Shown: one piece after another, positions 41,446 to 41,523 of the stretch
How the letters are laid out: the number at the start of each line of letters is the position of its first letter
Position numbering within the stretch: position 1 is the first letter of the stretch
Source of the DNA: Sphaerodactylus townsendi
Lineage: Eukaryota
Assembly (NCBI RefSeq): GCF_021028975.2
Contig: NC_059434.1
Location: forward strand, 88,846,001-88,910,000
Length of the DNA: 64,000 nt
Direction of reading: 5' to 3'
Notes under the pieces: generated by a model
Told to the model about the DNA's origin: nothing
What the model saw: only the letters and a program-made list of their open reading frames with translations
Databases searched by the model: none
Made by a program: the position numbers and the translations under genes

Positions 41446-41523
41446 TCTCCCCCCCTTTACAGGAAACTACTGGAAGGAGAAGAGTTGTGGTGGAATTCTT
41501 CTTCACAAATGACACTAAAATGA
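33168..41523 (+). CDS. Type IV neuronal intermediate filament protein (alpha-internexin / neurofilament-light-like), 3 exons, 401 aa
   Basis: Exons 33168-34187 (1020 nt, donor CAG|GTAAGC), 39448-39572 (125 nt, TAG| ... |GTTAGG), 41463-41523 (CAG|). Coil 1A start [10 protein letters not shown]...[47 protein letters not shown], rod end [28 protein letters not shown] long first exon, a 125-nt second exon and an intron inside AYR/K is the type IV IF gene structure. Confidence 0.93.
34304..34803 (-). mobile_element. Solo LTR (500 bp) in intron 1 of the IF gene
   Basis: TGTTGG...CCAACA termini and perfect 5-bp TSD CTGCG. Confidence 0.88.
35925..36790 (-). mobile_element. Degenerate CR1 fragments
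   Basis: Reverse-strand CR1 3' end (AGAATCATAGAG...ATAGAGTTGGAAAGG) and residual [12 protein letters not shown]...KLHMS. Confidence 0.6.
36108..36275. mobile_element. Short non-autonomous element with long inverted arms (Penelope-like); related pieces at ~23260-23300, ~23455-23510, ~24690-24800, ~42130-42745, ~44350-44490
   Basis: GAAGGCTTTCACGGCTGG head, then inverted arms TGGTTGTTGTGGGTTTCC...GTTCCTAAC / GTTAGGAAC...CCCACAACAACCA; recurs within the window. Family assignment is from recall. Confidence 0.6.
39598..40250 (-). mobile_element. CR1 LINE 3' fragment in intron 2 of the IF gene
   Basis: [14 protein letters not shown]...[19 protein letters not shown]...[23 protein letters not shown]...RKNFLTV. 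Confidence 0.92.
41399..41442 (+). repeat. (CT)n microsatellite forming the polypyrimidine tract of IF gene exon 3
   Basis: Pure CT repeat ending ~20 nt before the AG at 41461-41462. Confidence 0.9.

Follow-up and report, generated by a model that had tools for sequence, protein, structure and literature searches.

The 64,000-nt window of the Sphaerodactylus townsendi genome analyzed here carries on its plus strand a three-exon intermediate-filament (IF) gene, whose coding sequence runs from 33168 to 41523 between a homeobox gene and a helicase gene. The upstream neighbor (30069–32258, plus strand) is a TLX-family gene with a Pfam Homeodomain match, two paralogues 92 to 93% identical to it, and an AATAAA signal at 32253; by synteny we take it to be TLX2. 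Downstream, DEAH-box helicase exons of partly mapped extent (49099–50745, minus strand; Pfam HA2_N, HA2_C, and OB_NTP_bind) presumably belong to DQX1, again by synteny. Of the 147 long flanking frames, 91 were compared with Pfam; only the helicase was named, along with one weak match below the cutoff. About 830 bases past the AATAAA of the upstream gene, a motif scan places a putative core promoter on the plus strand (33068–33091), with a reversed CCAAT box at 33068 and a TATA box at 33086.

Splicing of 33168–34187, 39448–39572, and 41463–41523 yields a protein of 401 amino acids (aa). The exon 1 coding sequence (33168–34187; Pfam Filament, E 3.4e-53) specifies the head, coils 1A and 1B, linker L12, and coil 2 up to intron 1, and exon 2 (39448–39572; 125 nt; Pfam Filament, E 1.4e-13) specifies the end of coil 2B, which occupies a 42-codon exon in all five paralogues as well. 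Exon 3 opens with the rod-end motif KLLEGEE (41463–41484), invariant in all 38 aligned orthologues, and continues with a 12-residue tail (41485–41520) to a TGA stop (41521–41523). Both introns are of the GT-AG type with a pyrimidine tract. Intron 1 (34188–39447) sits at the type IV position shared with gecko NEFL, NEFM, NEFH, and NIF, while a CT microsatellite (41393–41456) precedes the acceptor of intron 2 (39573–41462). In type IV IF genes, the first exon is long and coil 2 is interrupted by two introns near its end; the intron positions found here are those of gecko NEFL and NEFM. The rod carries the conserved start (LNDRF) and end motifs of IF rods, and its coil 2 measures 121 aa between the conserved Trp and the end of the rod, a length found in all 10 rods compared. 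With its open frame, splice sites, full-length coil 2, and conserved stop, the gene is intact. Repeats are also present in the region: two copies (85 to 88% alike) of a high-copy repeat lie in intron 1 (34406–34618) and downstream of exon 3 (42309–42522), intron 1 holds an inverted repeat resembling a small transposon (36141–36275; 61-nt arms, 92% complementary, 13-nt loop), and intron 2 holds a high-copy, LINE-like fragment on the minus strand (39600–40260) that we assume to be of the CR1 type.

The gene has been modeled before. RefSeq protein XP_048365859.1 (401 aa), labeled "alpha-internexin-like [Sphaerodactylus townsendi]," is 100% identical to our exon 1 translation and has the identical tail. 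A DNA search found exon 3 to be single copy in the gecko genome. Contigs from three sequencing runs, all from one study that is possibly the source of the assembly itself, cover exon 3 with 0, 3, and 1 differing letters, none of them within 41463–41523; in a separate study of a related organism, one run covers 41460–41574 with 1 differing letter and no gap. Four further runs left exon 3 uncovered, two of them yielding no matching contig at all.

The earlier note had described an almost tailless IF protein without a side-arm, and both descriptions hold: 12 residues follow KLLEGEE, with 0 acidic residues and 0 KSP motifs among them. To place this tail in context, 179 relatives were pooled from homology searches with gecko, tortoise, and alligator queries, each search scoring about 8000 candidates and contributing the best 120 of its 165, 3873, and 730 passing matches, respectively. 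Among these listed matches, 151 reach the rod end (LLEGEE), and the other 28 end at exon 2, run into an intron, or have an altered end. Tails of 14 aa or fewer were found in 149 of these 151 listed relatives and tails of exactly 12 aa in 127; the remaining lengths were 4 (1 protein), 7 (4), 8 (1), 9 (9), 10 (1), 11 (1), 13 (1), 14 (4), 29 (1), and 31 aa (1). None of the 151 listed tails contains Asp, Glu, or KSP. The hosts among the matches listed include, for fishes, sharks, rays, a chimaera, bichir, sturgeon, gar, bowfin, many teleosts, coelacanth, and lungfish and, for tetrapods, caecilians, salamanders, turtles, alligator, and lizards. In lizards, the tail has changed from I-R-L-S-F/Y to M-W-W-S-S at equal length (the WW motif is present in 16 of 17 lizard-type tails); the short tail carries a conserved hydrophobic motif, I/F-R-L-S/T/A-F/Y. 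The 12-aa tail is thus ancient, having persisted from sharks through to lizards, and it reflects neither chance, nor a lesion, nor an error.

Readings that attribute the stop to a lineage-specific lesion or to an error of assembly, or that suppose a further tail exon to have been overlooked, can accordingly be given hardly any weight and are already refuted at the level of the sequence. They could draw on the fact that most orthologue models are automatic and might copy one another, as well as on the longer ends (29 and 31 aa) of 2 of the 151 listed models, although both of these ends are nonacidic. Tail length is equal from sharks to lizards, however, the stop occupies the same position across jawed vertebrates, and contigs assembled from reads agree. 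Among the Logan-only proteins, 12 of 31 cross both exon junctions into the short tail, as do 6 of 7 Logan members of the zebrafish cluster, in both cases on contigs of 1.3 to 2.4 kb that we infer to derive from spliced transcripts; most other Logan proteins run on into intron 1, and the zebrafish protein itself has an NP_ record. The apparently spliced fish and turtle contigs end in the short tail with no further exon. Neither of the refuting outcomes named in the earlier note, splicing to another tail exon or read-through in orthologs, was borne out. In the gecko, no KSP occurs in any plus-strand frame of 41524–46500, and no open stretch of 30 aa above 23% Asp/Glu was found near exon 3. The only GT dinucleotides in exon 3 before the stop are at 41484, 41487, and 41490, and none fits the splice donor consensus GTRAG. 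One further point in favor of a missed ending was an R-L-S-F-L-P-S-P word in the 3' untranslated region (41532–41555), 47 nt past the rod end in another frame, that resembles the ancestral tail start. The match was noticed after the fact, similar words arose in 124 of 20,000 shuffles, and the word is absent from a Varanus model translated in the corresponding frame. Two explanations of this word were rejected, namely, an insertion displacing an ancestral RLSF tail, since lizard tails align with the ancestral 12-aa tail residue for residue, and an intron of 47 to 50 nt restoring RLSF, since there is no pyrimidine tract, the donors are poor, and the Varanus model lacks the word.

The relatives belong to a subfamily that databases already name, as "Neuronal intermediate filament family member 2" or si:dkey-33c12.3 in UniRef; the earlier note missed this ancient group, which is sister to NEFL. 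The zebrafish orthologue is si:dkey-33c12.3/LOC335380 (NP_001188486.1), for which we infer the symbol neff2 by extension from neff1, a different zebrafish gene formerly called zgc:65851 (PMC10683209). In a 49-row rod tree (5 of 54 rows, on which a motif-based cut failed, were dropped), all 21 short-tail rows formed one clade at 100/100, sister to NEFL at 97/93, and a 26-row tree under a mixture model gave 100/100 for the clade and 99/98 for its sister position. Both trees use type III rows alone as the outgroup, flag the gecko row for unusual composition, and represent INA by parrot INA and conger inab. The rod groups with NEFL, NEFM, NEFH, and INA, not with type III proteins, which places it in type IV. 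The gene lies outside the NEFL clade, and the gecko has a true NEFL on another contig (C12); the Ser-rich head of about 95 aa that marks NEFL (97 aa and an S+T share of 0.32 in the gecko) is replaced by one of 72 aa with a share of 0.10. The rod likewise stands apart from INA, the tail is unlike the 80 to 100 or so residues of alpha-internexins, and the acidic and/or KSP side-arm tail of the neurofilament triplet is absent. The so-named fish proteins of family member 2, with nonacidic tails of about 12 aa, are the group that it joins. Lamprey NF-L falls with NEFL at moderate support (94/85 and 90/88), so the split between NEFL and the short-tail clade may predate jawed vertebrates.

That the gene belongs to this subfamily and that its taillessness is conserved is, as a joint statement, nearly certain. 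Within the type IV class, the protein is a real and ancient tailless variant that is annotated yet seemingly unstudied. A literature search found no text on the gene or its tail; since most subscription journals and supplements were outside its scope, an earlier mention is possible. The ESM Atlas returned generic IF clusters only. Among the 150 best profile matches from 1.84 billion representatives, 18 were named, and the short tail was seen in 2 lizards, 2 teleosts, alligator, and 1 fragment. The labels in use are mixed: RefSeq calls the gecko protein alpha-internexin, and its relatives are labeled NEFL, alpha-internexin, GFAP, or vimentin depending on the species. One Callorhinchus record, "NEFL-like," joins an NEFL-type head to the rod and tail of the short-tail subfamily; because another model has the normal head, it is likely a chimeric model, and it was left out of comparisons. 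The 49-row tree also recovered a separate clade of long-tailed, NEFM/NEFH-like proteins of fishes and sharks (99/98), many of which carry YRQSP close to where the tail begins; one was named only "uncharacterized."

The other type IV genes of the gecko are found elsewhere in its genome. NEFL and NEFM lie on contig C12 (2.4 Mb) and NEFH on contig C13, and a low-molecular-weight NIF/XNIF-type gene with an extra rod intron is located at C12:29.884–29.894 Mb. INA exons 2 and 3 are on contig C8, and neither C8:61.728–61.788 Mb (about 50 kb upstream) nor a genome search yielded INA exon 1, which may be missing from the assembly and for want of which gecko INA is not in the trees. As the NIF/XNIF-type gene has been kept too, the gecko has six type IV genes. 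Tail lengths in the five paralogues are at least 117 aa (NEFL, with 37 acidic residues among them), 568 (NEFM), 551 (NEFH), 97 (INA), and 76 aa (NIF). The contrast that had been drawn with the long acidic or KSP-bearing tails of these proteins is sound insofar as the side-arm is missing here but is overdrawn for INA, whose 97-aa tail in the gecko includes 11 acidic residues and lacks KSP. In gecko NEFM, the tail is full of xSP/xTP repeats but contains only 2 true KSP motifs. Neighboring gene families have been duplicated alongside. Three lysyl-oxidase loci with one exon pattern, which we take to be LOXL2, LOXL3, and LOXL4, lie near type IV genes, at distances of about 32 kb (the short-tail gene), 0.7 Mb (NEFL/NEFM), and 3.6 Mb (INA), and of the TLX paralogues one adjoins the short-tail gene and one is 1.5 Mb from INA. 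An origin by genome duplication therefore fits.

The head (33168–33383, plus strand) is 72 aa long up to coil 1A (EKEQL), rich in Arg, Gly, Ala, and Pro, and poor in Ser. It had been described as short, about 50 aa before LDLAQ, and as atypical, being Arg/Gly/Pro-rich and lacking a long Ser-rich stretch. The first figure agrees with the 53 residues counted before LDLAQ, but the head to coil 1A is longer than that, and 72 aa is within the usual 68 to 86 aa of subfamily heads outside lizards, compared with 93 to 100 aa in four gecko paralogues. The composition is as described here (S+T 0.10, versus 0.23 to 0.33 in the four paralogues) but is not a trait of the subfamily: the S+T share is 0.22 to 0.30 in six nonlizard groups, chondrichthyans, ray-finned fishes, lobe-fins, amphibians, and turtles among them, and 0.13 in 14 lizard proteins; heads in fishes are rich in Ser. 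Because the tail length is shared widely and the Ser-poor head is confined to lizards, the short tail is ancestral and the atypical head derived. GC content at third codon positions was rejected as the cause of the odd head, being 0.91 here versus 0.96 to 0.97 in the four paralogues. Relative to coelacanth, the front of the head is 0.18 identical and the pre-helix stretch 0.75, the last stretch from LERLDLAQ onward being conserved; in fishes and turtles, the subfamily has a conserved head motif of its own. The L12 linker region (33828–33896, plus strand; bounds approximate) is 8 to 9 residues longer than in gecko NEFL and coelacanth, and LNDRF to the coil 2 Trp accordingly spans 189 aa here versus 181 and 180 aa.

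Rods of lizards are 55 to 62% identical to that of coelacanth, compared with 75% for tortoise and 84 to 86% for caecilian, shark, and gar. Judged from these sequences, selection appears to have slackened in reptiles, with a faster rod, loss of head serines, and changed tail letters, while tail length was kept. Carried further, the subfamily could be functional in fishes and amphibians and the lizard copy decaying with little function left. The lizard stem branch (0.23 to 0.40) and the alligator end branch (0.47) of the rod trees, the rise of the rod G+A+R+P share from 0.18 to 0.36, and the short models of the gecko Euleptes (329 aa) and alligator (348 aa) would agree with such decay, and the run search listed no RNA run for S. 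townsendi. Moreover, no bird, mammal, frog, or snake was named among the matches listed for the three queries, which suggests loss of the gene in these groups. Full open frames nevertheless persist in lizards (about 15 species of gecko, skink, lacertid, iguanian, and anguimorph), lizard rods are 75 to 81% identical to one another and pre-helix heads 95 to 100% identical, the new WW motif is fixed in 16 of the 17 tails, and the splice sites and promoter boxes are intact, which makes decay to near-uselessness improbable in our estimation.

The sole expression record found is one row of a bulk table, which gives no measure of neuron specificity: in sorted dI2/V1 spinal interneurons of zebrafish at 27 h, si:dkey-33c12.3 had an LSMean of 47 (neff1, 172), and in morphants the value was 27 (FDR 0.28 versus the control value of 47) (PMC10683209). 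A role in the autonomic and enteric neurons that express TLX2, which the earlier note had suggested, finds no link in these data; the gene carries TATA and CCAAT-type boxes of its own, and the record concerns zebrafish spinal interneurons.

The spacing of filaments and the caliber of axons are commonly ascribed to neurofilament tails, a view that has been probed by engineered deletions in mice. Against this background, we propose that the gene originated when the NEFL ancestor was copied in an early vertebrate genome duplication and would have lost its acidic tail before sharks and bony fishes split. The protein would be made in neurons and, like NEFL, would use its rod and pre-helix head to pair with NEFM, NEFH, or INA, so that each subunit taking the place of NEFL would remove one acidic tail from the brush. 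With tails removed, filaments would pack closer, and axons or processes would stay thin. By analogy, a core subunit of this kind, co-assembling with neurofilaments, adding no side-arm, and thinning the brush, is about evenly poised between likely and unlikely, and the full explanation, an ancient and intact sister of NEFL acting as a tailless core subunit, is the one toward which we lean slightly. Rodent NF-L requires the head of NF-M or NF-H to form networks (PMC2119859), and deletion of the NF-M tail in mice reduced both spacing and caliber (PMC2173612). Tighter packing of filaments with a side-arm-less subunit is plausible by analogy with that deletion; the spacing evidence comes from the long NF-M tail, not from the NF-L tail that the short-tail subunit would replace.

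Mouse NF-L also indicates limits to what the assembly of such a protein may allow. NF-L from which 90% of the tail (128 aa) or over 30% of the head (31 aa) had been removed was reported to fail to join networks, milder tail cuts disrupt networks too, and the linker tolerates up to 8 extra residues (PMC2116331), a limit at which the lizard insert of 8 to 9 aa sits. Since the tail of the gecko protein is about as small as those of the failing mutants and its head is 25 aa below that of gecko NEFL, smooth co-assembly is not assured, and because the protein is thus near both the head and the tail limits of NF-L, two other modes of action must be considered. In the first, the protein would be a natural brake on neurofilament assembly, entering through its rod and capping or shortening filaments, which would keep growing or small neurons low in long filaments. 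NF-L engineered down to a comparably small tail does not join networks, and tail-cut forms disturb normal arrays once they exceed about 10% of the wild-type subunits (PMC2116331); the zebrafish transcript, which is present at 27 h and amounts to about one-fourth of neff1 (PMC10683209), would also suit a brake. However, the mouse proteins were truncated artificially rather than shaped by evolution, the whole rod is conserved, coil 2 length and both end motifs included, and the conserved hydrophobic motif of the short tail suggests an adapted end rather than a stump, so that we hold a brake to be unlikely, though a serious rival. In the second, the protein would build bare, tightly bundled filaments of its own, either by itself or together with peripherin or vimentin, in a specialized type of cell (sensory neurons, glia, or processes), for which keratin 19 and phakinin, both nearly tailless IF proteins, provide a model. 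The long stem branch separating the clade from NEFL (0.33 to 0.48 changes per column), the head motif particular to the subfamily in fishes and turtles, and the retention of the gene beside five other type IV genes point in this direction; its nearest relative, NEFL, cannot form networks alone in rodent cells (PMC2119859), and self-made filaments seem to us a rather poor prospect.

On the widest view, the gene would be an overlooked sixth type IV subunit inherited by jawed vertebrates, a tailless twin of NF-L that tunes spacing or assembly opposite NF-M and NF-H; reptiles would have let it decay, and mammals and birds would have lost it. We offer this wider view tentatively and would not expect all of it to hold. 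If it did, the mammalian neurofilament set would be a reduced one, and vertebrates would offer a natural counterpart, open to knockout, of the tail-cut NF-L mutants that fail to assemble. The gene is already modeled and named in databases, and its function as given here is wholly inferred. A natural NF-L sister with a 12-residue nonacidic tail, kept since sharks and bony fishes split and represented by a zebrafish orthologue amenable to knockout, nonetheless allows the need for the NF-L tail in assembly and the effect of tail dilution on caliber to be tested now. In addition, correcting the annotation would be useful, as the mixed labels can mislead expression studies in fishes and reptiles.

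In sum, the closest known counterpart is zebrafish si:dkey-33c12.3, or family member 2 (a database label), which forms one clade at 100/100 with the so-named coelacanth and medaka proteins, also has a 12-aa tail, and is of the same length class (385 to 408 aa); the lizard form differs in its Ser-poor head, its linker longer by 8 to 9 aa, and its WW tail motif. NEFL, the sister clade, shares both rod introns and the LDL-Q pre-helix motif, and its tail begins (x-R-L-S-F/Y) like the short tails of fishes, amphibians, and turtles. Gecko NEFL is, however, a separate gene: its Ser-rich head measures 97 aa, its tail has at least 117 residues that include 37 acidic ones, and identity over exon 1 is only about 40%. 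INA and NIF/XNIF resemble the short-tail protein in their type IV rods and in tails without KSP repeats but differ in locus (contigs C8 and C12) and tail length (97 and 76 aa) and fall outside the clade of NEFL and the short-tail proteins. Among other IF classes, keratin 19 of epithelia and phakinin (BFSP2) of the lens likewise consist of a rod followed by almost no tail, a likeness by description, and both assemble with a tailed partner.
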